Position numbers and translations under genes: made by a program | Assembly: GCA_023703535.1 (NCBI GenBank) | Contig: CP097967.1 | Location: 691,208 to 755,207 of the forward strand | Source of the DNA: SAR86 cluster bacterium | Lineage (GTDB): Bacteria > Pseudomonadota > Gammaproteobacteria > Magnimaribacterales > TMED112 | Length of the DNA: 64,000 nucleotides | Reading direction: 5' to 3' | Notes under the pieces: generated by a model | Told to the model about the DNA's origin: nothing | Databases searched by the model: none | Seen by the model: the letters and a program-made list of their open reading frames with translations, nothing else | Shown: positions 24,710 through 61,841 of the stretch, in pieces | Layout of the letters: each line of letters opens with the position of its first letter | How positions within the stretch are numbered: position 1 is the stretch's first letter

Positions 24710-24786
24710 TGGTAGACCCGATTGGACTTGAACCAACGACCTCTGCCATGTCAAGACAGCGCTCTAACCAGCTGAGCTACGGGTCT
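24710..24786 (-). tRNA. tRNA-Val (anticodon GAC), CCA encoded
   Basis: Hand-folded. Acceptor AGACCCG/CGGGTCT, D arm GCTC-AGCTGGTTA-GAGC, anticodon stem CTGTC/GGCAG with loop TTGACAT, T arm GTTGG-TTCAAGT-CCAAT, 3' ACCA. 77 nt. Confidence 0.9.
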
Positions 24787-25514: not shown

Positions 25515-27974
25515 CTATGAATCTAAAAATTTCGAGATCTTTTTATTTAAATATCTGAAATGAGTTTTTGTATCTTTATCACTCACACCAGATTTTGTAA
25601 ATTTTTGAATCTTTTCAAGACTTTCCATGATTGCTGCTTTGGATATCTCATCGTGTTGTGGAATTTCACCGCCACCACGAGGACCTCTTGGCATTGCAGG
25701 TGCAAATGCACTCATTAAAGCATCAACATAATTTGATTGTAGGTTTCTTTTAAAAGTATTGGGCACTTCTCCTCTAATAAAGATTCCATTAAAGAGATCG
25801 TCCAAAACTTCTGAAGGCATATATTTGTTACCATATTTTGATGAATCAACAAGTCTTGTCATTACTTCAGGGTTCAAAATTTCAACTAATATTTGCCCTT
25901 GCATTTCTAAAACCATTTCGTGAAGTTGTGGTACATCATCACGATCGAAGTCTGTAAGTCTTTTCTCGGTATGAAGATTCTTAACAATTTCTGAATCAAA
26001 TTCCCAAGCATCATTTGATAGGTATCTTTTCACTATTAAATCCATTGCTTCTTTTTGTATTTCATATGGCACAGGCTCAAAAGTATTGATACTTTGTCCA
26101 TTTAGAGATCGTGTAACGTACACTCCTCCAATGTGACCTGCCACACCAGCCATAAATCTACCTTTTGATCTCATTAATCTGTAAAAAGCATTTGTGAAAT
26201 CATGTTTAGTCTCACCCTCAACATTAAATATTTCATCCAACTCTTTTATTTTCTTATCAATAGTATCGAATCTTTCAGAGGTATAAGTAATCACATCATT
26301 TGAAAGGTCCCAAGTTCTAAACCTTGGATCAATCCCATATGCCCAGTTCCAAATATAAGGAGCTTCAACTGATTTGGATAGAAGTATTTCTCTTTCTTCA
26401 TCAGTCATATTAGGCTTATAGCCAAATTCAATGGCCCATTTATCATATTCACCAGGCTCAATAGAAAAGAACCTACCTTGTTTAACTCCCTCTGGAGCAA
26501 TATTTGGAGGATCGTAGTCCATTATTGAAGATAGAGTGGCATTTCCTGTTATTGATACATCATGAATTTCTCTGGGTCCATGAAGATAACTTGCGTTAAA
26601 GTTGTGTATTAAAGCTAAAGTGTGACCAACTTCATGAAGTGTGAGATTAATGATCCATTGTTCTAAAGGGTCATTTTCTTCATCATATCCCCATAATTTT
26701 CTCAAAAGATATCCAGATTTAATCGCTGAGAATTCAAGCATTATATCTGAAGCAATAATTTCACCGGTTTTTGGGTTTGCAATACTTGGCCCATAACCAG
26801 CTAGACCGGAAGGCTCGGGTGAATGAGCCCATCTGACAACGTTATATTGAACGTCACCCGCATCCCACTCAGCATCATCAGGCTGAATCTTAGCAACAAT
26901 AGCATTTTTAAAACCAGCTCTTTCAAATGCTATATTCCATCTTTCTATTCCCTCTACAACAAATGGTTTAATTTCTTCAGGAGTTGAATTTTCTACCCAA
27001 AAAACTATTGGTTCAACCGGTTCAGAAAGTTCTACCTCTGGGTCTTTTTTCACAAGTCTCCATTTATTAATGACGTCTCTTGCGGGATAAGAGTCATAAG
27101 AGGATAAATCAGTTATTCTTGCAGAATAGAAGCCTACTCTTTCATCAGCTAGTCTAGGTACGAAATTGTCATCAGGCATTTCAACAAAGAGATGACTCAT
27201 TTTGACAGATGTATATCTATCATCAGCTACAGAATATATATCTGACGATCCTGAAGGCATTGGGTTAAAAAATCCAAAATTTACCTCGATATTTGTATTC
27301 TTCTCATAATTCTTTACTTTTTCGACAAAAGTTTTACTTGGGTCAGGTTTGCCAAGATCAAGCTCAAGAAAATCTCTGTATTCAGGTGGAATATTTGGCG
27401 ATACAGCGGTAAGCATTTCGGATAGAAAAACTTTTGAAAAAGGCAGAAGATACCTTCCCTCCTCTTCAACTACACTTTTGAATCTACCAATAAAGGCATC
27501 AAAAATTGCAGTCAATTTTCTTTTGGAAATATTATTTTCTGTTTCGTTCGAAAAATTTGTATTTTTCTTGTAGAGGGCGAGCCCATCCTTAAATTTCCTA
27601 AATTCCAATACTATTCCATTACCTATTAATCTATCGCCTTTCATTTCTCCTGACATTACACCGGAACCTGTTGGAGCATTAAGAATATAAGCGAAGTAGA
27701 GAAACTCTTTATTTAAATCATTTTCACTAAGCTCTAAAAAATATGTATCTTTTTCAGTATCTTTATAAAGTTTTAAAAAACCATCAATTTCCTCAAATTC
27801 ACCATCTTCAAGAAAGTCTTCAACAGTTTCAAATTCATTCATCTCTTTCATTGCTTTTTTCATTTCTTCAGGTGAAAGAGGCTTACCATCATCTCCTCTG
27901 GGCATTGCGCTAAGAGAATTAGTAAAAAATAAAATTGTTGTGAATATAAATATTATTAAATTGATTTTTTTCAT
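25515..27974 (-). CDS. secreted zinc-dependent metalloprotease (large DUF5117/DUF4953-type)
   Basis: 819 aa with a signal peptide and the HExxH site TLHEVGHTLALIHNF. Confidence 0.75.
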   Translation of the reverse strand: MKKINLIIFIFTTILFFTNSLSAMPRGDDGKPLSPEEMKKAMKEMNEFETVEDFLEDGEFEEIDGFLKLYKDTEKDTYFLELSENDLNKEFLYFAYILNAPTGSGVMSGEMKGDRLIGNGIVLEFRKFKDGLALYKKNTNFSNETENNISKRKLTAIFDAFIGRFKSVVEEEGRYLLPFSKVFLSEMLTAVSPNIPPEYRDFLELDLGKPDPSKTFVEKVKNYEKNTNIEVNFGFFNPMPSGSSDIYSVADDRYTSVKMSHLFVEMPDDNFVPRLADERVGFYSARITDLSSYDSYPARDVINKWRLVKKDPEVELSEPVEPIVFWVENSTPEEIKPFVVEGIERWNIAFERAGFKNAIVAKIQPDDAEWDAGDVQYNVVRWAHSPEPSGLAGYGPSIANPKTGEIIASDIMLEFSAIKSGYLLRKLWGYDEENDPLEQWIINLTLHEVGHTLALIHNFNASYLHGPREIHDVSITGNATLSSIMDYDPPNIAPEGVKQGRFFSIEPGEYDKWAIEFGYKPNMTDEEREILLSKSVEAPYIWNWAYGIDPRFRTWDLSNDVITYTSERFDTIDKKIKELDEIFNVEGETKHDFTNAFYRLMRSKGRFMAGVAGHIGGVYVTRSLNGQSINTFEPVPYEIQKEAMDLIVKRYLSNDAWEFDSEIVKNLHTEKRLTDFDRDDVPQLHEMVLEMQGQILVEILNPEVMTRLVDSSKYGNKYMPSEVLDDLFNGIFIRGEVPNTFKRNLQSNYVDALMSAFAPAMPRGPRGGGEIPQHDEISKAAIMESLEKIQKFTKSGVSDKDTKTHFRYLNKKISKFLDS

Positions 27975-28055: not shown

Positions 28056-29147
28056 ATGAAAAAAATTTTATTAATAGCAGTCTTGATTTTCTCAGCTCAA
28101 ATAATTGCATTATCAGATAGACTTTCAGTTCCTGAGGGCTTCCAGGTAGATGTTTTCTCTAGCGACATTAAAAATCCTAGACAAATGGCCTTGGGCAGTG
28201 ATTTTCTTTTTGTTGGAACGAAAGAGGCTGGTGTTGTGTATGCGCTTCCAAAATCAAACCCTGAAGAAAAAATTGAAATACTAACGGAGTTAAATTCACC
28301 TACCGGTGTTGCCCTTCACAATGGAGACCTATATGTTGCAGAAATAGATAAGATTATCAAAATCGATAACATCGAAATGTCATTAAAGACTGGCGATATT
28401 AAATCAGAAATTTATTTTGAAAACCTACCAAGAAAGAAGATGTTTAACCCATTAAAAAAAATGTGGCATGGGTGGAAATGGATAGCTTTTGGGCCAGATG
28501 ACAAACTTTATTTATCTGAAGGTGTTCCATGCAATGTGTGTGAGGAAAAAGATGAAAGATTTGGTTCTATCCTGCAGATTCATGATGGAAATTATGAAAT
28601 TTATGCAGATGGTGTAAGAAACAGCGTTGGTTTTGCCTGGCACCCAATTAGTGAAAAAATGTATTTTACAGATAACGGAAGAGATTGGATGGGTGATGAT
28701 ATTCCTCCGTGTGAACTCAATAAAGTTTCTTATAAAGGTGAACATTTTGGATTTCCATATTTTCATGGAAATGATATTCCTGATGATAGCTTTAATGCAC
28801 CTGATGACTTTAGCTATACAAAGCCAGTCTGGGGCTTCCAAGCTCATACTGCTCCATTAGGAATTGATTTTTACACAGGAAATATGTTTCCTGAAAAATA
28901 TAAGAATGGTGCATTTATTGCACAACGTGGCTCTTGGAATCGATCAAAGAAAGTTGGTTACAGAGTTCTTTTTGCAGAATTTAAAGATGATGAAATTGCA
29001 TCTATGGAGGTTTTTGTTGATGGGTGGCTGGATGGCGAAACTTCTCTAGGTAGGCCGTCTTCAGTTTTGATGTATGATGATGGTTCTTTATTAGTATCAG
29101 ATGATACTGCTAATAAAATTTTTAAGATTTCTTACTCTGTTAATTAA
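28056..29147 (+). CDS. PQQ-dependent sugar (sorbosone/aldose) dehydrogenase family beta-propeller
   Basis: 363 aa with a signal peptide. Sequence is GSDH-like (PEGFQVDVF, NPRQMA, DNGRDWMGDDIPPCELN, GFPYFHG). Confidence 0.7.
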   Translation: MKKILLIAVLIFSAQIIALSDRLSVPEGFQVDVFSSDIKNPRQMALGSDFLFVGTKEAGVVYALPKSNPEEKIEILTELNSPTGVALHNGDLYVAEIDKIIKIDNIEMSLKTGDIKSEIYFENLPRKKMFNPLKKMWHGWKWIAFGPDDKLYLSEGVPCNVCEEKDERFGSILQIHDGNYEIYADGVRNSVGFAWHPISEKMYFTDNGRDWMGDDIPPCELNKVSYKGEHFGFPYFHGNDIPDDSFNAPDDFSYTKPVWGFQAHTAPLGIDFYTGNMFPEKYKNGAFIAQRGSWNRSKKVGYRVLFAEFKDDEIASMEVFVDGWLDGETSLGRPSSVLMYDDGSLLVSDDTANKIFKISYSVN

Positions 29148-33340: not shown

Positions 33341-33366
33341 TATATAAAAAAAATTTCTTAAATACT

Positions 33367-33396
33367 ATAAATGTTATTTATAATATGTAATTACAT
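33367..33396. promoter_or_regulatory. two palindromes in the LysR/ACAD divergent spacer (ATAAAT-GTT-ATTTAT = T-N11-A box; ATGTAATTACAT)
   Basis: 33367-33381 fits the LysR T-N11-A dyad and 33385-33396 is a perfect 12-bp palindrome. Both sit 22-51 bp upstream of the LysR ATG. The background is AT-rich, so chance is not excluded. Confidence 0.3.
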
Positions 33397-33417
33397 TTAT
33401 AATTATAATTCATACTT

Positions 33418-42799: not shown

Positions 42800-43390
42800 A
42801 TGCAAATAAAATTCATTTTTGATATCGCAAGTCCAAATGCATATTTATCTCATAAAGTAATTCCTGATTTTGAGAAAAAATATGATGTCAAATTTGATTA
42901 TTTTGTTTGTTTGCTAGGAGGTATTTTTAAATTATCAAATAATAAACCTCCTATGATTGCTAATGCAGAAATACCTCTCAAATATAATTACTTTGGCCAA
43001 GAGATCACAAGATTTGCAAAATTCCATCAATTAATAAACTTTAAAATGAATCCTCACTTCCCAATAAATACTTTGATTATTCAAAGAGGGGCTTTAGCAG
43101 CACAAGAGAGAGGGAATTTTGCAGAATATGTAGACTGTATAGCCAAAGGAATGTGGGAAGAAGAGAAAAATTTCAATGACATTGAAATTTTAAAGAGTTA
43201 TTTATTGCAGAATAAAATCAACGGTGAAGAAATTTTAGAACAAGCCGCAACTCCTGAAATTAAACAAAAGCTTATAGACAATACATCTAAAGCATACGAA
43301 ATGGGTGCTTTTGGAGTTCCAACTTTTTTTGTTGGGAAGGAAATGTTTTTTGGTAAGGAAGCATTTAGAGAAATGCCAGACTTTCTTTAA
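42800..43390 (+). CDS. DsbA-fold 2-hydroxychromene-2-carboxylate isomerase family protein
   Basis: 196 aa. The N-terminus IKFIFDIASPNAYL and the C-terminal GAFGVPTFFV are typical of the HCCA isomerase / GST-kappa family. Confidence 0.78.
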   Translation: MQIKFIFDIASPNAYLSHKVIPDFEKKYDVKFDYFVCLLGGIFKLSNNKPPMIANAEIPLKYNYFGQEITRFAKFHQLINFKMNPHFPINTLIIQRGALAAQERGNFAEYVDCIAKGMWEEEKNFNDIEILKSYLLQNKINGEEILEQAATPEIKQKLIDNTSKAYEMGAFGVPTFFVGKEMFFGKEAFREMPDFL

Positions 43391-44031
43391 TTAAAATCCT
43401 TATGTGAAAAGTAACTCACACCAGTTTTATTATTGAATGCCTCAGTTACCATATTTTTTGCAAGAGTCCTCGCTTCAACATTTTTAAAATCCTTTAGCTG
43501 TGATGGCAGCACTTGCCCAAAGATATTTGTTACTTTCTCAAAAATTTGAACATCTAGGCCAATTTTATTCTCCCTTTCTCCTAAAAGATGACTTGGTCTA
43601 AATATATTAATTTTATTAAATGATAACTTTTTAATTTCTTCTTCCATCTCCCCTTTTATCTTTAGATAGTGATTAAGCGAGTTTTTATCTGCCATTACCG
43701 AAGAAATTACAGATATATCTTTTATTCCGGTATCAAGCGCCATTTTAGCTAGTTTGATGACTAATCCAAAATCAACTTCTTCAAATTTAGGCTTAATTTT
43801 ATCGCGCATATAAATAAGATCTAAAAGCTCCAATGGGTATCCCAAGCATATAAAGAAATGTTCTGCAGGTTTTAAACTGAAATCTTTATTGAAATCTATA
43901 AGCTCTTGCTTAACATTGTTTGGAAATTTGAAAGGTCTTCTTGAAATTGCAATTACTTCATGCTCTTGGAGGAAATCAGTAATGAGTGTTTTGCCAACGA
44001 GTCCAGTTGAGCCAGCAACTAATATTTTCAT
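43387..44031 (-). CDS. NAD(P)H-binding (atypical SDR / HTATIP2-like) protein
   Basis: 214 aa with an N-terminal Rossmann motif, MKILVAGSTGLVG. Confidence 0.72.
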   Translation of the reverse strand: MKILVAGSTGLVGKTLITDFLQEHEVIAISRRPFKFPNNVKQELIDFNKDFSLKPAEHFFICLGYPLELLDLIYMRDKIKPKFEEVDFGLVIKLAKMALDTGIKDISVISSVMADKNSLNHYLKIKGEMEEEIKKLSFNKINIFRPSHLLGERENKIGLDVQIFEKVTNIFGQVLPSQLKDFKNVEARTLAKNMVTEAFNNKTGVSYFSHKDFN

Positions 44032-44044
44032 AAATTTAATTGAA

Positions 44045-44191
44045 TTATTTGGAAGTTTTATTCTCTAAAGCACTTATTTTATCCTCTATTTTCTCAAGCT
44101 TATCTAAGATTTGATGAAAAAAATTTCGCGCCTCTGTTGGGCACTTTTCAAAAAAATGCTCTGTTAACTTTTCTAAATCTTTATTATCCAT
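44045..44191 (-). CDS. possible 48-aa helical protein (below the ORF-track size cutoff)
   Basis: Hand translation: MDNKDLEKLTEHFFEKCPTEARNFFHQILDKLEKIEDKISALENKTSK*. It fills an otherwise empty 166-bp gap, on the same strand as both neighbours. I see no SD. Confidence 0.3.
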   Translation of the reverse strand: MDNKDLEKLTEHFFEKCPTEARNFFHQILDKLEKIEDKISALENKTSK

Positions 44192-44197
44192 CAGAAA

Positions 44198-44629
44198 TTA
44201 TTCTACTAGATTTAGATAGTTTGATAACCTTTCGGGATTTACAGCAAATGTTAGCTTTCCAACATTAGCTTTGACTTCATTTAAATTTACCGCTTCACCT
44301 ACTTGTATTACTCCAATCATTCCTAAGATTAGATGAGGTGTACATTGATAAACATATACTCCCTCTTCATTTAAAGTAACGCTAATGTTTTCATTAATTT
44401 CACCTTTCCATGGACTAGCTCCAGCAGGAATGAGCCCTTCTACTGATTCTGAGTTGTGTGCTAAATCAACAGATTTAAAATGGATAGTATCTCCTTTATT
44501 AACTTTTAAAAATCCTGGCTCAAAGATCATTGATCCGCCATCACCAAAATTTAGCATTTTCACTTCATGTTCGGCAGCACTAAGATTTAATGCCACTCCC
44601 ATTATTAAGCCTATAAATATTTTCTTCAT
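44198..44629 (-). CDS. pseudoazurin (type-1 blue copper protein), periplasmic
   Basis: 143 aa with a signal peptide. Close parallel to Alcaligenes/Paracoccus pseudoazurin as I recall it: HEVKMLN, MIFEPGF, Cu ligands in AHNSES and CTPHLILGM. Confidence 0.85.
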   Translation of the reverse strand: MKKIFIGLIMGVALNLSAAEHEVKMLNFGDGGSMIFEPGFLKVNKGDTIHFKSVDLAHNSESVEGLIPAGASPWKGEINENISVTLNEEGVYVYQCTPHLILGMIGVIQVGEAVNLNEVKANVGKLTFAVNPERLSNYLNLVE

Positions 44630-45234
44630 CCTATCTCCTCATCTGCATATTTATGATTAACTTCACTGTGATGCTCTTCATCTGCCTTTACACATTTAAC
44701 AAGATCTATTAGTCGAGCATTGCTTTTCAAATCGTAGTATTCAATTGCTATTTGTGGGGCTTTTACATTTTCAATTTCACCATCTTCAATCATCTTTAAG
44801 TATTCTGTATAACTTTTGACAGCTTCATCTTCAAAAAAACCTATCATTCTATGAGCTGTTTTAGTGAAGAAAACATACATAAAGAAGTAAAATGCGCCAA
44901 ACAAAAACTGTGAAAATAATACTAGACTTCTCTCGAATATATTCGGTTTAGCAATTTCAATAAAGAACATTAAATGCATTCTTTCATTTTCTGCCTCTGC
45001 TAACATTTCTCTTATGTGTTTGCCATAGCCTGCTTTCATTGATCTTAAGCTTTTAAAGTGCATCCACATCCCTGCGACCATACCAGGAACACCTGCAATA
45101 GTTTCGAGCACTACTGCTCTGTGGCCATATCTTTTTGCAAAAAAAGTATCTGCTATGAACCTAAAGAAAATGGTCATTGAATAGGCAAACCTATCAGAAA
45201 GTGTATGTAGGGAATTATTTTCAAATATATTCAT
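44626..45234 (-). CDS. aox: alternative oxidase (di-iron ubiquinol oxidase, AOX)
   Basis: 202 aa with the AOX iron-ligand helices: LETIAGVPGMV, ENERMHLM, EDEAVKSYTEYL, ADEEHHSEVNH. Confidence 0.9.
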   Translation of the reverse strand: MNIFENNSLHTLSDRFAYSMTIFFRFIADTFFAKRYGHRAVVLETIAGVPGMVAGMWMHFKSLRSMKAGYGKHIREMLAEAENERMHLMFFIEIAKPNIFERSLVLFSQFLFGAFYFFMYVFFTKTAHRMIGFFEDEAVKSYTEYLKMIEDGEIENVKAPQIAIEYYDLKSNARLIDLVKCVKADEEHHSEVNHKYADEEIG

Positions 45235-45319
45235 AATATAAGATTTATTTATAAGCTATTATATGAATTATTTATACTTAAACAAGGTTTTGGTAAGGAG
45301 TTTGCTAAAGATGTTCTTA

Positions 45320-45347
45320 GAAAAATGCAGGAGGATTTAATTCCTCC
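45320..45347 (-). terminator. rho-independent terminator after the 101-aa gene
   Basis: On the minus strand GGAGGA-ATTAAA-TCCTCC is followed by TGCATTTTTCT. It starts 6 nt after the stop codon at 45354. Confidence 0.55.
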
Positions 45348-45353
45348 AACATT

Positions 45354-45659
45354 TTATGGATTCTTATTAATCTCTGGAAAATTAACCAAAGGATTTTCGT
45401 TTAGAATTGTTGCTTCTGTAGTCTCAACATGTGCTCCTGCTGCTGCTCTAATATCTGTAAACTCCTGATCCTCTTTGAAAGATTTAAGACCTTCCATGCT
45501 CTGATAATGGATAATGGCAAACATACTTGTATCATCATCCTTCTCAGTTCCGGCAAAGATAATTGTTCCACCGTGTTTTTGAAGACGGTGGCCATTTTCA
45601 AGCGCCATTTCCATCCATTTCGCAAATGAATCACATTTTTGTGTAAGTTTTACGTACAT
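45354..45659 (-). CDS. small cytoplasmic protein of unknown function (possibly ABM-like alpha/beta barrel)
   Basis: 101 aa with its own terminator. An SD-like AGGAGGAAAT precedes the ATG (plus-strand TTTCCTCCT at 45662-45670). Confidence 0.6.
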   Translation of the reverse strand: MYVKLTQKCDSFAKWMEMALENGHRLQKHGGTIIFAGTEKDDDTSMFAIIHYQSMEGLKSFKEDQEFTDIRAAAGAHVETTEATILNENPLVNFPEINKNP

Positions 45660-45721
45660 ATTTCCTCCTAAAGAAAGAGTAACAAATAATTTGTTAAATT
45701 AAATTAAGTTTCTAATAAAAA

Positions 45722-45806
45722 TGGTAGGGATGGAGGGAGTCGAACCCCCACGCCTTACGGCACTGGAACCTAAATCCAGCGTGTCTGCCAGTTCCACCAC
45801 ATCCCC
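45722..45806 (-). tRNA. tRNA-Leu (anticodon UAG), long variable arm, CCA encoded
   Basis: Hand-folded. Acceptor GGGGATG/CATCCCT (G1-U72), D region GTGGAACTGGCAGACAC, anticodon stem CTGGA/TCCAG with loop TTTAGGT, variable arm GTGCCGTAAGGCGT, T loop TTCGACT, 3' ACCA. 85 nt. Confidence 0.88.
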
Positions 45807-45821
45807 AGCTGAAACGTTATT

Positions 45822-46037
45822 TTATATGACAAAAGCTAGGATTAAACCTAAAACAGCAAAAATTAACCACATAATTGCTTCCTTTTGGCTTCCTTTTTTA
45901 AAAGCCATATATGAGAGAATCCAAAAAATAACAGGTGAAACAAGTAAAAATGCTTTACCGATTAATATTACAGCTGGAACTAAACAAACAATTAAGAAAA
46001 CTTTGTAAAAAGTCTCATTTAGAATCTTATCCATCAT
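45822..46037 (-). CDS. small 2-3 TM membrane protein
   Basis: 71 aa, hydrophobic. It starts directly after the sulfatase stop with a zero gap. Confidence 0.5.
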   Translation of the reverse strand: MMDKILNETFYKVFLIVCLVPAVILIGKAFLLVSPVIFWILSYMAFKKGSQKEAIMWLIFAVLGLILAFVI

Positions 46038-55057: not shown

Positions 55058-57258
55058 GATTGTGCAAGCTCCATTGCCTGTTCTACGTCCACAGAAACAA
55101 CTTTTGAAACTCCTAGATCTCTCATAGTCACTCCAAGGAGATGAGTGCTTTTTTCCATTGATATTTTATTATGTGTTACAAAAATAAATTGAACTTTAGA
55201 AGACATTTCAGACACTAAATTAATAAACCTTACAGTGTTTTCATCATCTAATGGGGCATCCACCTCGTCAAGCAAACAAAATGGAGCAGGATTTATAGAA
55301 AACAATGAAAAAACTAAAGCAAGAGCAGTTAATGCCTTTTCACCACCTGATAACTGAGATAGTTTTGTGTTCTTTTTTCCAGGTAATCTAGCCATTAAGA
55401 TTAGTCCGGAGTCTTCGGAACTATCAACAGGATTTAATTTACAAAATCCACCATCAAAAAGTTTTGGAAAAATTTCCTCTAAAAACTTATTAGTTGAATT
55501 TAAGCAATCATTGAAAGACTTATTAGATTCTCTATCTATCTTTTTAATTGCCTCGTCTAGTTTTGATAATGATTCAACTAATTCCTCAATCTGACTAGTT
55601 AAAACCTCTTTTCTTTGCTTTTCCGCTTCTAGTGTTTCAGGTGCTGCAAAATTGATAGGCCCTAGATTCATAATTTTCTGTTGCAGCTTTTCTAATTCAA
55701 TACTTATGTCCTCTTCTTCTCCTTGAATATCTTTCACATCCTTATAGGTATCGAGTTTCTCAGTCTTTTCCTTGATTTCGTTTTCCAAACTTCTTTTATT
55801 AACTTCTTCTTCGTTTCTTTTTTGTGATATTGCTTCTTTCTGTGTTTCAAGTCTTGTGATTTCTGCCTCAAATTTTCTGACTTCTTCGTTTAAGTTATCT
55901 TGATTTGCTCTAAGAGTAGTAATTTTTCCTTCTTGCTCCTTTCTATTTTCCACAAGATCAGAAAGTCCTGATTTTTCATTTTTAAGATCTTTTTTTATGT
56001 CTTCAATTTCTTTGATGATTGCTTTGTTTCTCTCAACAAATTGTTCTTTAAGAGAGTTAATAGTTTCTGAATTATCAGAGCCCTTCCCTTTTCCAAAATC
56101 AAAACCTTTTTTCCAAAATTTAATTAATGACTGTTTCAAAATTTCGAATACGCTTTCATCAATCTTTCCTTGAAACTTTTTGATTTCAATAGAAACTTCA
56201 CTTTCTATTACTTTTTCAACATCAGATTCAGCAGATGATGTTTCGACAGCTCCATCATCATCACTCAAATCAGCTAAATTCTTTTTATTTTTTTCTTGTT
56301 CAAGCTCTAATTCAGAAATTCTTATATTCGAAGATTTTTCTTTCTCCTCTATCAATGAAATCTTTGCACCAAGTTCAAAAAATACTCTCTGCTGATCCTC
56401 TAAATCTTTTAGACCCTCCATTAGCTTTGTTTTACTCACATCTCTTTTTGAAGTAAAAGCTAATCTTTCCCCATCAAGTTTTTCTATTCCATCTTCAGTA
56501 CTTTTATTTTCTTTCTCAGCAGATTTAAGCTGATCTGTTAATGTATTGATTTCAGAGTTAATTAAAAATTTTGAAAGTTCTTTCTCTTTCTCTCTAAGTT
56601 TTTTGTATTTAGTAGTTAAATTTGCTTCTGCATTAAGTCTCCTTATAGATCTTTTTACTTCATCCTCAAGATCTTTGAGCCTATCAATATTTTCTGAAGT
56701 TCTTTTAATTCTTGATTCAGTTTCTCTTTTTCTCTCTTTGTATTTTGTTATTCCAGCGGCTTCTTCTACATAACTTCTTAGCTCCTCTGGCTTTGCACTA
56801 ACTAGACTAGATATTATTCCTTGCTCAATAATGGCATAACTATTAGCACCTAACCCTGTCCCAAGGAATAAATCTTGAACATCTCTTCTTCTTGCTGAAG
56901 CATTATTTATAAAATAAGTTGATTGTCCATCTCTTCCCATTTCTCTTTTAACACTTACTTCATCAAATTTGAGATATTCTCCACCCAAAAAATTTTCAGA
57001 ATTATCAAAAAAGAGTTCAACAGAGCAATGGCTTACCGGCTTTCTATTATCTGAGCCATTAAAAATGACGTCTTGAAGACTTTCACTACGTAGACTTTTC
57101 GCTGACAGCTCTCCTTTAACCCATTTGATTGCATCAATTATGTTTGACTTTCCACAACCATTTGGACCAACAATGCCACACATTATTCCAGGGAAGTCTA
57201 CTTGAATCGGATCAACGAAACTTTTAAATCCAGAGAGTTTTAAGCTTTTAAGTCTCAT
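55054..57258 (-). CDS. smc: SMC-family chromosome partition ATPase, unusually short (734 aa) with no recognisable hinge
   Basis: N-terminal head SGFKSFVD..GPNGCGKSNIIDAIKWV and C-terminal head LSGGEKALTALALVFSLF..LLDEVDAPLDD. Only about 390 aa of coiled-coil/linker separate them. Confidence 0.85.
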   Translation of the reverse strand: MRLKSLKLSGFKSFVDPIQVDFPGIMCGIVGPNGCGKSNIIDAIKWVKGELSAKSLRSESLQDVIFNGSDNRKPVSHCSVELFFDNSENFLGGEYLKFDEVSVKREMGRDGQSTYFINNASARRRDVQDLFLGTGLGANSYAIIEQGIISSLVSAKPEELRSYVEEAAGITKYKERKRETESRIKRTSENIDRLKDLEDEVKRSIRRLNAEANLTTKYKKLREKEKELSKFLINSEINTLTDQLKSAEKENKSTEDGIEKLDGERLAFTSKRDVSKTKLMEGLKDLEDQQRVFFELGAKISLIEEKEKSSNIRISELELEQEKNKKNLADLSDDDGAVETSSAESDVEKVIESEVSIEIKKFQGKIDESVFEILKQSLIKFWKKGFDFGKGKGSDNSETINSLKEQFVERNKAIIKEIEDIKKDLKNEKSGLSDLVENRKEQEGKITTLRANQDNLNEEVRKFEAEITRLETQKEAISQKRNEEEVNKRSLENEIKEKTEKLDTYKDVKDIQGEEEDISIELEKLQQKIMNLGPINFAAPETLEAEKQRKEVLTSQIEELVESLSKLDEAIKKIDRESNKSFNDCLNSTNKFLEEIFPKLFDGGFCKLNPVDSSEDSGLILMARLPGKKNTKLSQLSGGEKALTALALVFSLFSINPAPFCLLDEVDAPLDDENTVRFINLVSEMSSKVQFIFVTHNKISMEKSTHLLGVTMRDLGVSKVVSVDVEQAMELAQS

Positions 57259-57631
57259 TTCGTTTTTTTATAGTATAGATGGTTACAAGGCCAATAGACA
57301 GAATTAAAACAATTAATGGAAGATAAATAAGCAAATTATTTTTACCAATTTCTTCATTCAAAATAATGTAATTTCCGTACCTTTCTCTCATCAGATCATA
57401 GATTTCTTTATCTGACTTCCCATTACTAATCAAATATGAAATTTCTTTTTTAAGATCTTTTGAAATTGGAGCATTTGAACTATTTATATTTCCATAATCA
57501 CATTTAGGACATCTTATGTTTTCCGAAATTGTATCAAGACGTAAAATTTCTTCTTCTGTTAAATTGGAATAAAGTTTTTCAGCAAAAATAAGACTTGAAC
57601 TAAGAAGAATTAAACTAAAAAAAACTTTCAA
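57248..57631 (-). CDS. ccmH: cytochrome c-type biogenesis protein CcmH (CycL-type)
   Basis: 127 aa with a signal peptide, the motif IRCPKCDYGNINSSNAP and a C-terminal TM segment. Confidence 0.8.
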   Translation of the reverse strand: MKVFFSLILLSSSLIFAEKLYSNLTEEEILRLDTISENIRCPKCDYGNINSSNAPISKDLKKEISYLISNGKSDKEIYDLMRERYGNYIILNEEIGKNNLLIYLPLIVLILSIGLVTIYTIKKRNET

Positions 57632-58145
57632 AGTCCCTCTCCCAAATTTTTCTATTCAGTTCTCCAACCCTATGACTTACAATTTTCCCATCGATTACTA
57701 AAAATGTTTCTGGTGCGCCAATTACGCCTAGTTTTAGCGAGTAATCACCACCTAAGTCAAAGATTGAATTATCGTAAGGATCTCCATTATCTTCCAAATA
57801 TGAAATTGCATCACTGAGTTGGTCTTTGTAGTTAATACCAACAATTTTTAGATTGTTTTCTTCTGAGATTTTTTTTAAAAAAGGATGTTCTACTTTGCAT
57901 GTAATACACCAACTAGCCCACACATTTAATAAAACTTTCCCTTTAAGCAACTCTTCTTGATCAAAAATTTCTTGATTTAAGTCGACTAGATTTTCAAATT
58001 CAGGCAAGTCCTTTCCAGTTTGATTATTAATCCTTGAGATTTCTGGTTTAGACAATGAATAAGAAAATAAATAAATCATGCCAATGATTAAAAAACTTAC
58101 AAAAACAATAAAAATTCTATTCATTTGATCTTTTAATAATTCCAT
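57615..58145 (-). CDS. ccmG: thiol:disulfide oxidoreductase CcmG/DsbE
   Basis: 176 aa with a TM anchor, WASWCITCKVEHP and GAPETFLV. The likely start is MNRIFIV at 58124. Confidence 0.9.
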   Translation of the reverse strand: MELLKDQMNRIFIVFVSFLIIGMIYLFSYSLSKPEISRINNQTGKDLPEFENLVDLNQEIFDQEELLKGKVLLNVWASWCITCKVEHPFLKKISEENNLKIVGINYKDQLSDAISYLEDNGDPYDNSIFDLGGDYSLKLGVIGAPETFLVIDGKIVSHRVGELNRKIWERDFESFF

Positions 58146-59949
58146 AAAGCATGGATAACATCAACAGGACAGAGGATAGCCAAATTGTCATAATTCCATA
58201 CTTTATAGAAAAGGATAGTGTCCAGGAGCCATCAGAATATCTATCGCCTAAGACTATTAAATAATCCTTTAAAAAGCTTGGACTTATACCTGTTTCCGAA
58301 GTTATTTGTCCGCCTATCCTGTAAATTCTTCTTTCACTTTGTATCAAAGATTCATTTCCTTGATAATCAACCAAAAAATTAGCTTTAATTGAGTCAAAAT
58401 TATCCTGATTCTCTAGCTCAATAGATTCAAATGAAACTGTTCTATCAAAAACTTGTATCCTCTCATTTGGTGCCAGTTTAAGATCAACATTTTTCGAATA
58501 AAAATGATTACAAAGAACACTAAAGGTTAATAATATTACTGAAAAGTGTCCTAATATTTTATGTGTTTCTCTATTACTCTTATCAAAAACAATTTTGTAT
58601 CCGCCCCTTAAAATAAAAACTACGAGTATTAATCCTGTGAAGAGAATGCCAATATTTTTTACAAAACCATATATAAAAAATAATAATGGAACAATTAAAA
58701 ATAATGAGACTAGAATCAAGCCTTTATTTCTCACCCCAAGAAAAATTTCGAATGAGAATATACTAATTAAAGCAATTACAAGAGGTGTAATTAAGTCTGA
58801 GAAATATTTGGGACCAACGCTCAGAGGTTGTTGATAAATTGATTCATAAAATAATGGATATAAAGTTCCAATAAATACAATTAAAAGAATTGTCATCATT
58901 ATTAAATTATTCAAAAGAATTAAATATGTTCTTGAAAAAAGATTAGGCCATTTGCTGCTCAAATTATTTGTTTTAGCAAAGAAAGCTACAAAAGATATAA
59001 ATGAAAACAATGAAAAGATACTTAATAAATAAATGCCACGTGTTGGATCGGCTGCAAATGTATGAACACTGTTAAGTACGCCTGATCTCACTATGAAAGA
59101 GCCCAAAATTGAAAGTAGAAAAGTCAAAATTCCTAAAAAAACCATCCAAGATAATAAAATTTTATTTCTGCTAAATATCAAAGAGTGGCTGAATGCTGTT
59201 CCAGCAAGCCATGGCATTAATGCAACGTTCTCAACAGGGTCCCAAAACCAATATCCGCCCCAACCCAGTTCGTAATAAGCCCATATAGAGCCTAGAAGTA
59301 TGCCCAATGTAAGAGTAAACCATGAAATGCCGCCCCAAACTTTTAAGACATTAAAGAGTTTATTGTCAAATTTGGTAAACATCCCAGAAATAACAAGACT
59401 AAAGGTGATTGCGTATAAAACGTAACCAGTAAATAAGATAGGAGGATGAATAATTAGCAATGGATCTTGTAAAAGTGGATTTAAGTCAACCCCATTTGGT
59501 GGAGGATTTGCAATCTTGAGGAATGGGTTTGATGTAAAAATCACAAAAAGTAGATATAAAAAAATTATCCCAGCAACAATTTGGTTAGAAATATTAATAA
59601 AAGGTTTGCCAATATTTGTTAGGTTATTTATGAACATTGCCAAAGATAAAATCAAAGTCATTAATAAAAATGAACCCTCGTGAGCAGACCAGGAAGCAGA
59701 AAACTTATAGAAAGTTGGAAGAAAGATATTTGAATTACTGGCTACATATAAAAATGCAAAATTATCAATTAAAAATTGTGTGATCAAATAGATAAATGAT
59801 GTAAACAGAGCAAATAAATTAAATGAAATTAAATTATTATTAAAATTAACAATTCTTTTAAAAATAGATGAAAGAAGTACAAGAAAAATAGAAAAACAAG
59901 CTAGAGAAAGCAAAATATTTCCCAATAAATCAAAACTTATATTAATCAT
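58117..59949 (-). CDS. ccmF: cytochrome c heme lyase subunit CcmF
   Basis: 610 aa, polytopic, with the WWD motif WGGYWFWDPVEN. Confidence 0.92.
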   Translation of the reverse strand: MINISFDLLGNILLSLACFSIFLVLLSSIFKRIVNFNNNLISFNLFALFTSFIYLITQFLIDNFAFLYVASNSNIFLPTFYKFSASWSAHEGSFLLMTLILSLAMFINNLTNIGKPFINISNQIVAGIIFLYLLFVIFTSNPFLKIANPPPNGVDLNPLLQDPLLIIHPPILFTGYVLYAITFSLVISGMFTKFDNKLFNVLKVWGGISWFTLTLGILLGSIWAYYELGWGGYWFWDPVENVALMPWLAGTAFSHSLIFSRNKILLSWMVFLGILTFLLSILGSFIVRSGVLNSVHTFAADPTRGIYLLSIFSLFSFISFVAFFAKTNNLSSKWPNLFSRTYLILLNNLIMMTILLIVFIGTLYPLFYESIYQQPLSVGPKYFSDLITPLVIALISIFSFEIFLGVRNKGLILVSLFLIVPLLFFIYGFVKNIGILFTGLILVVFILRGGYKIVFDKSNRETHKILGHFSVILLTFSVLCNHFYSKNVDLKLAPNERIQVFDRTVSFESIELENQDNFDSIKANFLVDYQGNESLIQSERRIYRIGGQITSETGISPSFLKDYLIVLGDRYSDGSWTLSFSIKYGIMTIWLSSVLLMLSMLYGIIKRSNE

Positions 59950-60400
59950 TATTATTTAGTTCGACTGGAGAATAGTTTTCATCATGTTTGGCTAAAATTT
60001 CTTTTGCTACAAATATTTCTTCGTTAGTATCAAAATAACCTAAAGCAACTACTCCACTGTTTTCTTTAAACAAATTTGGAAGAACGCCTCTAAATGTTAC
60101 TAGTGTCTCATTGTCATAATCAGTTACGTAAAATTTTGTGTTCAAACCCTCTTTTTGAACACTATTCACTTTTACCATTCCACCTAATTTAAATGTATTT
60201 AAATTTTCATATCCCTTTTCAATTGCTTGTGTTGGTGTCAGATAGAAATTAATATTTGATTGAAGCGCCTTTAAAACAAAGAATGTAATCATTCCCAAAG
60301 CGCTTAATGTTACTAGTATTACCCCAAGCCTATTTAATCTGTTTTGTCTAATCATCTGAACGTTCAATAAAATATTTTTTTTGTTTAGCATATTTGTCAT
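59942..60400 (-). CDS. ccmE: heme chaperone CcmE
   Basis: TM anchor plus OB fold, with the heme-binding His in LAKHDENYSP. The real start is probably the internal MIRQNRLN, about 45 nt downstream of the track start. Confidence 0.9.
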   Translation of the reverse strand: MTNMLNKKNILLNVQMIRQNRLNRLGVILVTLSALGMITFFVLKALQSNINFYLTPTQAIEKGYENLNTFKLGGMVKVNSVQKEGLNTKFYVTDYDNETLVTFRGVLPNLFKENSGVVALGYFDTNEEIFVAKEILAKHDENYSPVELNNND

Positions 60401-60476
60401 GTGCCAACCAATAACTTAAAAGTATAAAAAATAAAAAAACTAAGTAGGAAATGTAAACCAACATTAAATTATCCAT
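60348..60476 (-). CDS. ccmD: heme exporter protein CcmD
   Basis: 42 aa counted from MDNLMLVYISYLVFLFFILLSYWL (single TM). Its position between ccmC and ccmE supports the call. The upstream part of the track ORF overlaps ccmC. Confidence 0.7.
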   Translation of the reverse strand: MDNLMLVYISYLVFLFFILLSYWLAHDKYAKQKKYFIERSDD

Positions 60477-61200
60477 TGATCTCTCCTTGTAACCGCTTTG
60501 ATTGCCTTGTTCTAAGCAATATTTCAGACTGAATATTTCTTGCAAAAATAGCATACGATAAAAACAATAATGAAATCACCATTAAAATTAGAATTGTAAG
60601 AAATTCTCCAGCAATAGTACTGCCTGATGAAGTTATGCTGGGTCCTTGATGTAAAGTATTCCACCAATTAACTGAGAATTTAATTATTGGGATATTAATT
60701 GCCCCTATTATTGCAAAGATACTAATCACAGTATCTGAAGTCGATATAGAATTAAAAGATGTTCTAAGGACGTACAATCCTATATATTGAAGCAAAAGTA
60801 TAAAAGTTGACGTAATTCTTGCGTCCCAAACCCAATAAGTTCCCCATGTTGGCTTTCCCCACAATGAGCCTGTAATTAAAACTAACAATGTTACAGCAAT
60901 TCCTATAGGCACAGCAGAATTCAGATAGATTGTAGAAATTTTTGTTTTCCAAACAAGAAAAATCAAACCGCAATTTGCCAGAAAAAGATAAATTAGCTCA
61001 GAAAGTATTGCAGAAGGAACATGTATATAAATGATCCTATAAACCTCATCTTGCTGTACATCAGCTGAGGCAATAAATAGAGCTTGAAATGCGCCAAAAG
61101 CAAATAGCACTAAACCGATTAATAACGATGGAAAAGACGTAACTTCACAAAATTTATACACCTTTTCAAGCATTAAATATTTGGCAACATATTTATACAT
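60469..61200 (-). CDS. ccmC: heme exporter / heme handling protein CcmC
   Basis: WWD motif WGKPTWGTYWVWDARIT. The likely start is MYKYVAKYL (61200), overlapping the ccmB stop by 1 nt (TAATG). Confidence 0.9.
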   Translation of the reverse strand: MYKYVAKYLMLEKVYKFCEVTSFPSLLIGLVLFAFGAFQALFIASADVQQDEVYRIIYIHVPSAILSELIYLFLANCGLIFLVWKTKISTIYLNSAVPIGIAVTLLVLITGSLWGKPTWGTYWVWDARITSTFILLLQYIGLYVLRTSFNSISTSDTVISIFAIIGAINIPIIKFSVNWWNTLHQGPSITSSGSTIAGEFLTILILMVISLLFLSYAIFARNIQSEILLRTRQSKRLQGEING

Positions 61201-61841
61201 TATCTTGATTGAATCCTTAGTACTTTCAGAGTAATTAGATTGCAGAATACGTCTGAAAAAATGAAATACGCAATCATTAGATAGATGCTTGAGCCCCAAT
61301 TATAGTTTGTAAGTAAAACGTCATTAGAGATTATGAAATAAGGTATAAGTAAGGGCATTATCACAAGGGCATTTAGAGCATTATTTCTTTTAAGAGAAAC
61401 AGCGCTTCCAAGATAAAAAAAGTTTTTAAGTGTTATCAAAAAAAGCAGATATGAAAAAACAAACTTTTCAATACTGATTTCTTCAAATACTTCACTATTT
61501 ACACCTATGTAAAGCATTGAAATTAAAACCATTGGTAAAAAGACCAATATTATTTGAGTTAAACTTTTTCCTATTAAATAAAATTCAAGATCATTTGTTT
61601 CACAAATTTTTTTCTCAATAAAACCACTTTTGTAATCATCAAGATATGTGCTCTCCGACATTAAGAAAACTGTAAAAAGACTTGCTATAAAAACATTTGA
61701 AAACCCTAACAAGTAGTTTGAATCTATGATCGTAAAAATTACAAAAATAATACTAAAAATTGAGATTGGCATATAAATATTTTTTGGAATACCCCAAAAA
61801 ATTAAAAATTCTCTTCTTACGTTTTTAACTAGTCTTTTCAT
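61200..61841 (-). CDS. ccmB: heme exporter permease CcmB
   Basis: 213 aa with six hydrophobic segments, positioned between ccmA and ccmC. Confidence 0.8.
   Translation of the reverse strand: MKRLVKNVRREFLIFWGIPKNIYMPISIFSIIFVIFTIIDSNYLLGFSNVFIASLFTVFLMSESTYLDDYKSGFIEKKICETNDLEFYLIGKSLTQIILVFLPMVLISMLYIGVNSEVFEEISIEKFVFSYLLFLITLKNFFYLGSAVSLKRNNALNALVIMPLLIPYFIISNDVLLTNYNWGSSIYLMIAYFIFSDVFCNLITLKVLRIQSR

Follow-up and report, generated by a model that had tools for sequence, protein, structure and literature searches.

Introduction

Alternative oxidases (AOX) are widespread in planktonic marine bacteria. The enzymes of Novosphingobium aromaticivorans and Vibrio fischeri are the closest described counterparts of the AOX discussed here, with which they have in common membership of PF01786, four di-iron motifs and a short form of ~200 aa. 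Like these bacterial enzymes, the SAR86 AOX is without the eukaryotic N-terminal extension and is presumably a non-proton-pumping ubiquinol oxidase. The V. fischeri AOX is under the control of NsrR and provides NO- and ROS-tolerant respiration. To our knowledge, the bacterial AOX genes described so far are either monocistronic or co-regulated with NO-detoxification genes, and none has been described that is co-transcribed with a cupredoxin. Pseudoazurins (PAZ) are best known from denitrifiers (Achromobacter cycloclastes 1bqk, Alcaligenes faecalis 1paz, Paracoccus pantotrophus 3erx). Docking of the Achromobacter, Alcaligenes and Paracoccus proteins makes use of a basic lysine ring around a hydrophobic patch, and Paracoccus pseudoazurin is an electron donor to cytochrome c peroxidase (CCP).

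SAR86 bacteria are uncultured and rank among the most abundant bacteria of surface seawater, where they account for a sizeable share of the community. The window analysed here is a stretch of 64 kb from a SAR86 gammaproteobacterium, in which an AOX gene and a pseudoazurin gene were confirmed as a pair on the minus strand. The pairing is real and conserved, and apparently undescribed: as the preliminary description of this DNA had maintained, no functional link is on record, and a searchable library yielded no relevant paper that joins AOX with pseudoazurin or SAR86 with either.

Results

Identity of the oxidase and the cupredoxin

The AOX protein matches positions 15-216 of the 216 positions of the PF01786 profile (E=6e-68, 229 bits), that is, the whole catalytic core, and trypanosomal AOX structures are recovered from the PDB at E~1e-37 (3vv9/9kun; 3vv9 E=2e-37). 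The four di-iron motifs read LET (E44), NERMH (E84, H87), EDEA (E135, E137) and DEEHH (E186, H189), and the Fe ligands E44, E84/H87, E135(/E137) and E186/H189 occupy columns that are invariant or at least 90% conserved (alignments A2 and A3). Inspection of the AOX sequence revealed no N-terminal signal peptide. In the protein index the identical protein occurs on 107 contigs named SAR86 cluster bacterium.

The cupredoxin passes the TIGR02375 'pseudoazurin' equivalog cutoff (125.6 bits vs 109.85) and matches PF00127 at E=6e-16; it scores far under the cutoffs of the plastocyanin, halocyanin and amicyanin models. Its top PDB match is the pseudoazurin 1bqk (E=6e-29). The mature N-terminus starts at residue 19, between NLSA and AEHEV, and aligns with residue 1 of 1bqk, and PAZ is predicted to be exported to the periplasm via this cleavable signal peptide. 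Core identity to the denitrifier pseudoazurins is ~50%, and like them the SAR86 protein has the H40/C78/H81/M86 site, a C-terminal extension and a Sec signal peptide; the Cu ligands (1bqk numbering) are intact in the window protein and in 10/10 SAR86-type relatives. The assignments made in the preliminary description, an AOX with all four di-iron motifs and a signal-peptide-bearing pseudoazurin with intact H, C, H and M ligands, thus hold against profiles and structures. No sign of foreign composition was found, with GC at 0.30-0.35 along the locus.

Table 1. Features of the AOX-PAZ locus and of the tRNA-Val region, in coordinates of the 64-kb window
Feature	Position	Strand	Description
tRNA-Leu(TAG)	45722..45806	-	ARAGORN; Rfam tRNA 51.8 bits; upstream edge of variable island
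DUF1330-like gene, weak	45354..45659	-	101 aa; upstream neighbour of AOX; PF07045 E=1e-3, under cutoff
Hairpin with T-run, terminator-like	45330..45347	-	GGAGGAATTAAATCCTCC then TGCATTTTTC; insulates AOX from upstream gene
AOX promoter/leader	45246..45285	-	sigma70-type; conserved element TATAAT-N3-TTATAAATA
AOX -35	45285..45280	-	TTGTTT, then 16-nt spacer containing TATAAATA
AOX -10	45263..45258	-	TATAAT, then AGC-TTATAAATA
AOX (di-iron ubiquinol oxidase)	44626..45234	-	202 aa; PF01786; without signal peptide
Coupling junction	44626..44640	-	GAGGAG Shine-Dalgarno 44640..44635, 5-nt spacer, ATGA 44626-44629
Pseudoazurin (PAZ) precursor	44198..44629	-	143 aa; TIGR02375; mature type-1 Cu protein acidic
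PAZ signal peptide	44629..44576	-	residues 1-18; MKKIFIGLIMGVALNLSA then AEHEV
ORF48	44045..44191	-	48-aa small ORF; 6 nt after PAZ; first gene of conserved downstream flank
TIP30/PA4017-like gene	43387..44031	-	214 aa; atypical SDR, NAD(P)-binding; 13 nt after ORF48
GSDH	28056..29147		
DUF5117/DUF4953	25515..27974		
Pirin	24818..25501		
tRNA-Val(GAC)	24710..24786	-	ARAGORN; alternative PAZ site, empty here

A two-gene operon with its own promoter

The start ATG of PAZ (44629..44627) overlaps the stop TGA of AOX (44628..44626) by 4 bp within an ATGA, the Shine-Dalgarno sequence of PAZ lies within the 3' end of AOX, and a terminator scan placed no terminator between the two genes (Table 1). From the overlap we infer co-transcription, and together with the shared strand, the internal Shine-Dalgarno sequence and the uninterrupted junction it supports the assignment of AOX and PAZ to one transcription unit. 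The unit would be read from its own sigma70-like promoter behind a hairpin terminator. The ATGA junction and the two-gene operon put forward in the preliminary description were both recovered. Overlaps of 4 bp are routine throughout this streamlined window, and the AOX/PAZ overlap is therefore unremarkable by itself. Their frequency is one argument for a neutral origin of the adjacency, in which small flexible-genome genes in tRNA-linked islands come to overlap by default as a streamlined genome sheds its intergenic space, and no selected link exists. We consider such an origin unlikely on the comparative evidence given below.

The genes downstream of PAZ may belong to the same unit. ORF48 had no match in Pfam or NCBIfam, but counterparts with 67-76% amino acid identity were found in other lineages, in some relatives at another place. 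Because of this conservation, the 48-aa ORF that had been suggested to follow PAZ is probably a real gene, and it is probably co-transcribed with PAZ. The TIP30-like gene is possibly the last gene of the unit; its product resembles PDB entries 2fmu/2bka (E~1e-14) and PA4017 (3e-11), with weak matches to HIM1 and NAD_binding_10. That the TIP30-like product feeds AOX by acting as an NAD(P)H:quinone reductase is a tentative possibility at most, as the similarities are remote and sub-threshold only. A transcript from the AOX promoter could continue into both ORF48 and the gene for the TIP30-like NAD(P)-binding protein.

Conservation of the pair in two opposite gene orders

Uniqueness of the adjacency to this genome had been named beforehand as a possibility, and it does not hold: at least five lineages have the pair, and both gene orders occur among them. 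The order AOX-PAZ with the ATGA overlap is present in lineages L091-93 and L232 (AOX 87% identical), L094-96 (83-84%) and L028 (75%), with different flanks each time, and the same ATGA junction was read in L091, L094 and L028. The reversed order PAZ-AOX, with a TAATG overlap, occurs in L034 and in an independent lineage, L233-236, with a PAZ that is 64% identical. The persistence of two opposite orders, each with a stop/start overlap, while the flanks are reshuffled argues against neutral adjacency.

In favour of neutral adjacency, AOX contexts are highly variable. A survey of AOX neighbourhoods for cupredoxins was positive in several SAR86 lineages, but no cupredoxin adjoined AOX at 77/80 of the best loci from other species, many SAR86 among them. 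These 80 loci are the best of 600 stretches in a GTDB scan that missed the 84-87% lineages, which came from the protein index, and 3/80 is accordingly no frequency for all AOX. Given that most AOX-bearing species, including many SAR86, are without the adjacency, the link between the two genes is dispensable. No pair was found outside SAR86-type genomes among the best 80 GTDB loci or the metagenome matches listed. A degenerate junction pattern used for the latter was specific on test loci (18/18 true pairs and no other match); of at least 120 metagenome matches listed, 113 were chance and 6 were real, all 6 of SAR86 type. One match, in L214, proved to be a eukaryotic tandem AOX and was rejected as an AOX-PAZ pair, and an apparent loss of PAZ in L001 and L008 was traced to N-gaps in the scaffolds and not to deletions.

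Most of the AOX homologs retrieved in this work belong to lineages of surface waters (SAR86, Pelagibacteraceae, Polynucleobacter, Methylophilaceae, Halieaceae and Erythrobacter). The AOX neighbours seen elsewhere are of redox or stress type and include a ferritin-like protein, an NAD(P)H quinone reductase and an OYE fusion.

Apparent capture of PAZ by the AOX control region

The AOX leader contains the 18-nt element TATAAT-N3-TTATAAATA, for which 21 matches were found in 1.05 Mb x2, across six independent lineages. Each of the 21 is followed after 8-21 nt by the start codon of AOX or by the first ATG of a PAZ-AOX operon, and no match was found at any other place in the 2.1 Mb. In the reversed operons PAZ is placed exactly behind this conserved AOX leader motif, a position that speaks against a neutral origin of the pair. 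A second motif of 16 nt that covers the -35 and spacer region, TT[GT]A[CT][AT]TAATATA[AGT]AT, is common only to AOX-alone and PAZ-alone promoters. Both motifs were defined post hoc from these sequences in AT-rich DNA. A broader similarity ranking of upstream regions was confounded by the coding sequence that precedes operon-internal genes and serves as a hint only. A search with Rfam for a riboswitch or sRNA in the AOX leader matched the tRNA only. The confinement of the 18-nt motif to AOX or PAZ-AOX operons suggests that the control region of AOX has captured PAZ.

An alternative site of PAZ is seen in sister SAR86-type lineages, in which the order is GSDH, DUF5117/DUF4953, tRNA-Val and then a stand-alone PAZ with its own promoter. 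The presence of such stand-alone genes in sister lineages counts in favour of neutral adjacency. The window retains GSDH, DUF5117/DUF4953 and a Pirin gene (Table 1), no PAZ stands beside its tRNA-Val, and the AOX-linked copy is the one PAZ match in the 64 kb. Since the tRNA-Val site is empty here, PAZ would be a single-copy gene that was relocated. The stand-alone PAZs form a clade that, in the tree, is nested among AOX-linked clades. SAR86-type PAZ genes occur either alone by tRNA-Val or joined to AOX, in the latter case behind AOX or else in front of AOX and after its leader.

The cassette is the constant part of a variable island

Comparison of the window with L232 delimited a variable island linked to tRNA-Leu. 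The island flanks are 96.3% and 94.1% identical between the two, and the cassette of promoter, AOX and PAZ is 77.2% identical at the nucleotide level. The 96% homology stops at 45717, the end of tRNA-Leu; the 77% homology begins exactly at 45286, the edge of the AOX promoter; and the 94% homology starts at 44190, the start of ORF48. The island measures 1.5 kb in the window vs 7.75 kb in L232, and of its components the two share the cassette and its promoter alone. No integrase was seen. On these identities the cassette can be read as the diverged core of a tRNA-linked variable island, and the step from 94-96% in the flanks to 77% in the core suggests that promoter, AOX and PAZ move as a unit.

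Cassette and stand-alone PAZ both adjoin tRNA genes (Leu, Arg, Val), as would be anticipated for neutral traffic through flexible islands; tRNA-Leu(TAG) stands directly upstream of AOX in L094 as well. Against a neutral origin, nothing in the island is constant apart from the AOX-PAZ pair. The DUF1330-like gene upstream of AOX has an 82% identical copy at 4369-4671 of L094, after DUF4149. By this placement it is an island accessory, which in L094-96 lies downstream of the cassette instead.

PAZ lacks the lysine ring of denitrifier pseudoazurins

No NirK, NosZ or CCP was found among Pfam-assigned gene calls that span nearly the whole 64-kb window, which agrees with the absence of these partners nearby in the preliminary description. 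The ccmA-H genes are present in the window, and a cytochrome branch therefore exists. At positions 10, 12, 38, 46, 57, 59 and 77 of 1bqk, all of which are Lys, the window PAZ has F, D, L, E, K, E and Q, that is, the ring KKKKKKK has become FDLEKEQ. The core carries a net charge of -8 vs -2 for 1bqk and has a pI of 4.8 (~4.5 across the SAR86 PAZs, all of which are without the Lys ring). Because the ring is replaced and the core is acidic, the docking partner of SAR86 PAZ is predicted to differ from the denitrification enzymes that denitrifier pseudoazurins serve. Published SAR86 genomes are without nitrate and nitrite reductases (PMC3358033).

These properties bear on a possible stress function, in which AOX would keep the quinone pool oxidised or allow NO/ROS-tolerant respiration, PAZ would feed a periplasmic peroxidase, and both would be co-induced in sunlit, H2O2-rich surface water. 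The surface-water origin of most AOX homologs and the redox- and stress-type AOX neighbours described above are consistent with such a pair. We nevertheless regard it as very unlikely, since neither a peroxidase nor an NsrR- or OxyR-type element turned up in the vicinity of the operon and the Paracoccus-type lysine ring for docking to CCP is absent from PAZ.

The tight translational coupling in both gene orders could also be taken as a sign that PAZ and AOX form a single trans-membrane electron path, possibly via a DUF4149 membrane protein with 4 TM helices, whose gene begins 2 nt after PAZ in L091-96 and has a homolog near the reversed operon in L233/234. Such a path is extremely improbable. 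AOX is without a signal peptide and is predicted to be a monotopic enzyme of the cytoplasmic face, and PAZ is predicted to be exported; moreover, because the potentials of type-1 Cu sites are well above that of ubiquinone (established knowledge), PAZ cannot feed AOX through quinol. DUF4149 has one conserved His and is absent from the window, L028 and L034, and was rejected as an obligatory redox partner. Shared regulation of AOX and PAZ is thus more likely than direct electron transfer between them.

Candidate iron-regulated elements in sister lineages

AOX contains two non-haem Fe, and AOX and PAZ both reduce the haem demand of respiration according to established family biochemistry. The cassette might hence be an iron-sparing module, induced upon iron scarcity, with AOX bypassing the haem- and FeS-rich bc1/cytochrome oxidase segment and PAZ replacing soluble haem cytochrome c. 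Sister lineages give this idea some substance. There, a cluster for a TonB-dependent receptor, Peripla_BP_2, FecCD, an ABC ATPase and a HugZ-like protein is located 55 nt upstream of the cassette, with no terminator between AOX and the HugZ-like gene. The divergent promoter of the iron-uptake cluster contains a good match to the Fur consensus (AAATGATTATCATTT, 14/19); in L232 this TBDR/ABC promoter, with its AATGATTATCATT core, served as the positive control.

The window itself offers little of this. The iron-uptake cluster is absent (no tblastn matches), a terminator stands upstream of AOX, and a scan with the E. coli Fur consensus gave 0 matches with at most 3 mismatches. The AOX and PAZ promoters scored at background against the consensus (10-13/19), and the best match upstream of the window AOX reached 11/19 in PWM-free scoring. 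The HugZ match is also weak (39 bits vs a cutoff of 240). Given the background-level scores, iron control of the AOX/PAZ operon is unsupported by a cis element, and we judge the iron-sparing module to be decidedly unlikely. The iron part of the stress response envisaged in the preliminary description likewise finds no support in a Fur box of this genome.

Discussion

The reading that we favour, and to which we give an even chance, is that of an AOX-led operon that captured the cell's single PAZ gene and now provides two co-regulated outlets of the quinol pool without direct electron exchange. AOX would oxidise ubiquinol directly on the cytoplasmic face and form water without contributing to the proton-motive force. 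Exported PAZ would serve the cytochrome branch as a one-electron carrier based on copper. It would accept electrons from bc1 or from periplasmic dehydrogenases, hand them to a peroxidase or a cytochrome-c-type oxidase and take over the part of a soluble haem cytochrome c. AOX and PAZ would be parallel outlets that pass no electrons to each other, and selection may repeatedly have placed them under one switch that rewires respiration as a whole. Plausible triggers would be situations in which the coupled, haem-rich chain is expensive to run or is over-reduced, namely iron scarcity, or light and proteorhodopsin back-pressure together with ROS. The 'uncharacterised overflow or branch route' hypothesised from the pairing in the preliminary description could take this form. 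A more specific version is offered as a tentative proposal: the AOX leader would define a SAR86 'rewiring' regulon in which an uncoupled oxidase is co-induced with an acidic PAZ that replaces soluble cytochrome c, minimising the demand for haem and iron or relieving proteorhodopsin-driven over-reduction, and which was hard-wired at least twice by insertion of PAZ into an AOX operon.

The exchange between plastocyanin and cytochrome c6 in cyanobacteria and algae serves as a working analogy, in that a soluble haem carrier between a bc-type complex and a terminal acceptor could be exchanged for a small acidic cupredoxin in an iron-poor ocean. That switch, however, is regulated by copper and chooses between two alternative carriers, whereas the SAR86 cupredoxin is predicted to be co-expressed with the quinol oxidase of the other branch. 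AOX is likewise joined to a small redox protein in other streamlined planktonic bacteria, namely Pelagibacteraceae (NAD(P)H:quinone reductase) and Methylophilaceae (AOX-OYE fusion). The partners in those groups are cytoplasmic flavoproteins able to feed the quinone pool, which would give an NAD(P)H-to-quinone-to-O2 overflow. Unlike them, SAR86 PAZ is predicted to be periplasmic and would work downstream of the quinol pool, in the competing branch.

The genetic joining of AOX and PAZ, built twice, offers the concrete hypothesis that two electron-transport branches are switched together, with a copper carrier in place of a haem carrier. It bears on the role of AOX in planktonic marine bacteria and on that of pseudoazurin in strictly aerobic non-denitrifiers. 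If true, it would inform the redox balance of streamlined photoheterotrophs and the iron cost of their respiration, as well as the share of respiration that is uncoupled from energy conservation, which is relevant to estimates of bacterial growth efficiency. The conserved leader motif provides a culture-free handle on a SAR86 regulon.

A predicted AOX-pseudoazurin operon

The alternative oxidase (AOX) and the pseudoazurin (PAZ) are each ordinary members of known families. Trypanosomal AOX structures match the former (E~1e-37), and aligning it with ten short, diverse AOX proteins places its iron ligands (E44, E84/H87, E135, E186/H189) in columns that are invariant or nearly so, which bears out the four di-iron motifs of the preliminary description; no signal peptide was read from its sequence. 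The pseudoazurin exceeds the 109.85-bit cutoff of its NCBIfam equivalog model, is ~50% identical to crystallised pseudoazurins and, as had been claimed, keeps all four Cu ligands (His40, Cys78, His81, Met86). Its predicted mature end (…NLSA/AEHEV) pairs with residue 1 of 1bqk. The AOX protein is identical on 107 public contigs, under the name 'SAR86 cluster bacterium', and single-cell genomes and Tara metagenomes contribute near-identical loci. The GC content of the window is 33%.

All relevant genes lie on the minus strand. The ATGA overlap first described was found at the junction, GAGGAG-ATAGG-ATGA, where the stop codon of AOX and the start codon of PAZ share bases and the ribosome-binding site for PAZ falls within AOX, with the caveat that 4-bp overlaps are frequent across this compact genome. 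The 48-aa ORF noticed earlier (ORF48) is present and conserved, starting 6 nt after PAZ, and 13 nt beyond it is the gene for a TIP30/PA4017-like NAD(P)-binding protein. A 95-aa ORF at 45721..46008(+), called on all public contigs, lies antisense over tRNA-Leu(TAG) and is almost certainly spurious.

Features of the window around the AOX-PAZ operon and related sites
Feature	Position	Strand	Remarks
Hairpin + T-run	45347..45330	minus	upstream of AOX
Sigma70-like promoter	45285..45258	minus	TTGTTT-16 nt-TATAAT, upstream of AOX
AOX	44626..45234	minus	202 aa; Pfam AOX over whole core, E=6e-68
PAZ	44198..44629	minus	143 aa; NCBIfam pseudoazurin equivalog model, 125.6 bits
ORF48	44045..44191	minus	48 aa
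tRNA-Leu(TAG)	45722..45806	minus	beside variable island
tRNA-Val	24710..24786		counterpart of stand-alone-PAZ site
Pirin gene	24818..25501	minus	inserted between DUF5117/DUF4953 and tRNA-Val at 'empty' PAZ site
DUF5117/DUF4953	25515..27974		counterpart of stand-alone-PAZ site
GSDH	28056..29147	plus	counterpart of stand-alone-PAZ site
ccmA, B, C, D, E, F, G, H	57248..62397	minus	complete System I cytochrome c maturation operon

Conservation of the pairing

The AOX alignment was used to scan one genome per GTDB species, and the best 80 loci were taken (SAR86, Porticoccaceae, Pelagibacteraceae, Polynucleobacter, Methylophilaceae, Halieaceae, Erythrobacter and others). PAZ adjoined AOX in only three of them: L011 (the species of the window itself), L028 (AOX→PAZ, with an ATGA overlap) and L034 (the reverse order, PAZ→AOX). 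Looking up PAZ homologs in the contig index yielded further pairs. AOX→PAZ with identical 4-bp geometry is present in L091-93 and L232 (AOX 87%, PAZ 79% identical to the window) and in L094-96 (83-84% and 65%), and L233-236 have PAZ→AOX with the TAATG overlap of L034, different flanks and a PAZ that shares just 64% identity with L034's. Because this second lineage shares the overlap between other flanks, an assembly error does not explain the reversed order. With pairs in all of these loci, the adjacency is not unique to this genome.

A degenerate AOX→PAZ junction pattern matched 18/18 true pairs and nothing else among the comparison loci; on the metagenome collection it recovered SAR86-type pairs alone, among many chance matches. 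Across the best 80 GTDB species loci, the PAZ contig look-up and the metagenome pattern matches listed, the pairing was not found outside SAR86-type lineages, within which it is, as judged from these alignments, conserved. One chance match, the metagenome contig L214, was rejected as a pair; this contig bears two long-form AOX genes in tandem (307-2761; 300 and 284 aa), both N-terminally extended, and a protist is its probable source.

A cassette in a variable island

Compared with L232, identity is 96.3% along the left flank, which stops at the tRNA-Leu(TAG) gene (window 45717), and 94.1% along the right flank, which begins at ORF48 (44190). The cassette of promoter, AOX and PAZ is only 77.2% identical, its homology beginning at 45286, directly upstream of the −35 element. 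Between its flanks L232 also encodes a TonB-dependent receptor, a Peripla_BP_2/FecCD/ABC transporter, a HugZ-like protein and a DUF4149 membrane protein, all missing from the window; the window island has a DUF1330-like gene instead, which in L094-96 lies on the cassette's other side. Directly before AOX stands tRNA-Leu in L094 and tRNA-Arg in L028. Since gene content between the flanks differs among lineages, AOX–PAZ with its promoter is, on this comparison, the sole shared component of an island whose surroundings are shuffled. A serious rival explanation is that the two genes adjoin neutrally, within a compact island linked to a tRNA; it has to be weighed against this constancy of the cassette, and we consider it rather unlikely.

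The DUF4149 gene (TMEM205-like, 4 TM, 128-129 aa) starts 2 nt after PAZ in L091 (3934-4320) and L094 (3934-4323), and a 50% identical copy (L233 344-730) lies 2.6 kb from the reversed operon; one His is conserved, and no more.

Promoter and leader motifs

In 1.05 Mb (both strands) of window and comparison sequence, TATAAT-N3-TTATAAATA occurs 21 times, in every case 8-21 nt before the first ATG of an AOX-alone (L013, L014, L019, L021), AOX→PAZ (window type) or PAZ→AOX unit. In the reversed operons of L233-236 it precedes PAZ, not AOX, and PAZ is therefore under the AOX promoter/leader in both orders. The −35 element and spacer TT[GT]A[CT][AT]TAATATA[AGT]AT, found only before some AOX-alone genes and stand-alone PAZs, hints that the two genes may be regulated in common also where they are apart. 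Both motifs were drawn up once the AT-rich DNA had been inspected; the first is good evidence of shared control and the second suggestive. An Rfam search gave no element in the cassette control region.

The stand-alone PAZ promoter (L097 3449-3480; equivalent in L103 and L106) has an operator-like perfect 9-5-9 palindrome, TAATATAAA-TATCG-TTTATATTA, from −35 to −10. A similar palindrome, TATAAAT-AACA-TTTATA, lies at about 33341-33417 of the window between divergent acyl-CoA dehydrogenase and LysR regulator genes.

Relocation of PAZ

Four other PAZ lineages (59-67% identical) are stand-alone, in the order GSDH – DUF5117/DUF4953 – tRNA-Val(GAC) – PAZ, with no AOX within 3.5 kb; neighbouring proteins on their contigs carry Gammaproteobacteria labels. 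The corresponding window site has no PAZ, and the whole 64 kb holds one PAZ only. In a neighbour-joining tree the SAR86-type PAZs form one group relative to crystallised pseudoazurins, and the stand-alone clade nests among AOX-linked branches. The empty site, the single PAZ and the tree speak for relocation of one orthologous single-copy gene rather than for a specialised paralog. The GSDH-family protein near the empty site is PQQ-type soluble sugar dehydrogenase-like and could conceivably be a periplasmic electron source for PAZ.

Partner of PAZ and proposed role

As described initially, no NirK, NosZ or cytochrome c peroxidase is present among Pfam-assigned gene calls covering nearly all of the window. 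Positions 10, 12, 38, 46, 57, 59 and 77 of 1bqk are all lysine, which we take to be the ring on which nitrite reductase and peroxidase dock. The window PAZ instead has F, D, L, E, K, E, Q, with similar replacements in all SAR86-type relatives, AOX-linked or not, and core pI is 4.4-4.8 in SAR86-type PAZs versus about 6. The missing enzymes, replaced ring and acidic core suggest that the partner is likely different from denitrification/peroxidase enzymes. SAR86 have been described as aerobic proteorhodopsin heterotrophs with genomes lacking nitrate and nitrite reductases (Dupont et al., PMC3358033). The window holds the full ccmA-H, so the organism makes c-type cytochromes, from which a cytochrome branch follows.

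As a family, alternative oxidases take electrons from ubiquinol on the cytoplasmic side and pump no protons, and pseudoazurins are high-potential periplasmic one-electron carriers that cannot reduce quinone. As PAZ would, on family knowledge, also be unable to reach AOX, the two would drain the quinol pool side by side and not in sequence; direct AOX-PAZ coupling seems very improbable. Starting from what the comparisons demonstrate at sequence level (one predicted promoter, a coupled pair, two conserved orders, a relocated single-copy gene and a cassette travelling with its promoter), our preferred reading, given about even credence, is a regulatory fusion, in which selection would have brought the cytochrome branch's copper carrier under the same switch as the uncoupled oxidase.

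Iron scarcity is an attractive trigger for such a switch: in sister lineages the cassette lies 55 nt behind an uptake cluster bearing a Fur box. In L232 (5879-5963) this near-perfect palindromic box, AAATGATTATCATTT, occupies the divergent promoter between the receptor and transporter genes, and a five-gene uptake cluster plus the HugZ-like gene stands directly upstream of AOX. The whole set is missing from the window, however, whose genome offers no supporting cis element; Fur consensus matching of the window and the AOX/PAZ promoters gave no box above background. Light, ROS or redox back-pressure is an equally possible trigger.

The searchable literature contains no described AOX-pseudoazurin link, as had been supposed, and no description of a conserved AOX-PAZ operon, its double origin, the AOX leader motif or an acidic pseudoazurin subfamily in a non-denitrifier. 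The operon is a specific, testable lead into uncoupled respiration of a dominant ocean bacterium, its mechanism being at the proposal stage.

Other AOX neighbours

A Methylophilaceae MAG (L050 4001-5755; P0123) encodes a 584-aa fusion protein in which residues 4-195 form a complete AOX domain, joined to an Old Yellow Enzyme/N-ethylmaleimide-reductase-like NADH:flavin oxidoreductase (NF007899, E=8e-107); the protein may pass electrons from NAD(P)H to oxygen on its own. In Pelagibacteraceae (SAR11-type; L075 4672-5280, L084, L085), a Flavodoxin_2-family gene resembling NAD(P)H quinone reductase (PF02525, E=5e-18) lies 7-16 nt after AOX and shares its strand, an arrangement suggestive of a pair for overflow along NAD(P)H->quinone->O2. 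In Porticoccus/Cellvibrionales (L025, L027 4694-5134) the same-strand gene after AOX encodes a 146-aa ferritin-like/rubrerythrin-like protein (PF00210, E=1e-17), another AOX neighbour of iron or oxidative-stress flavour.
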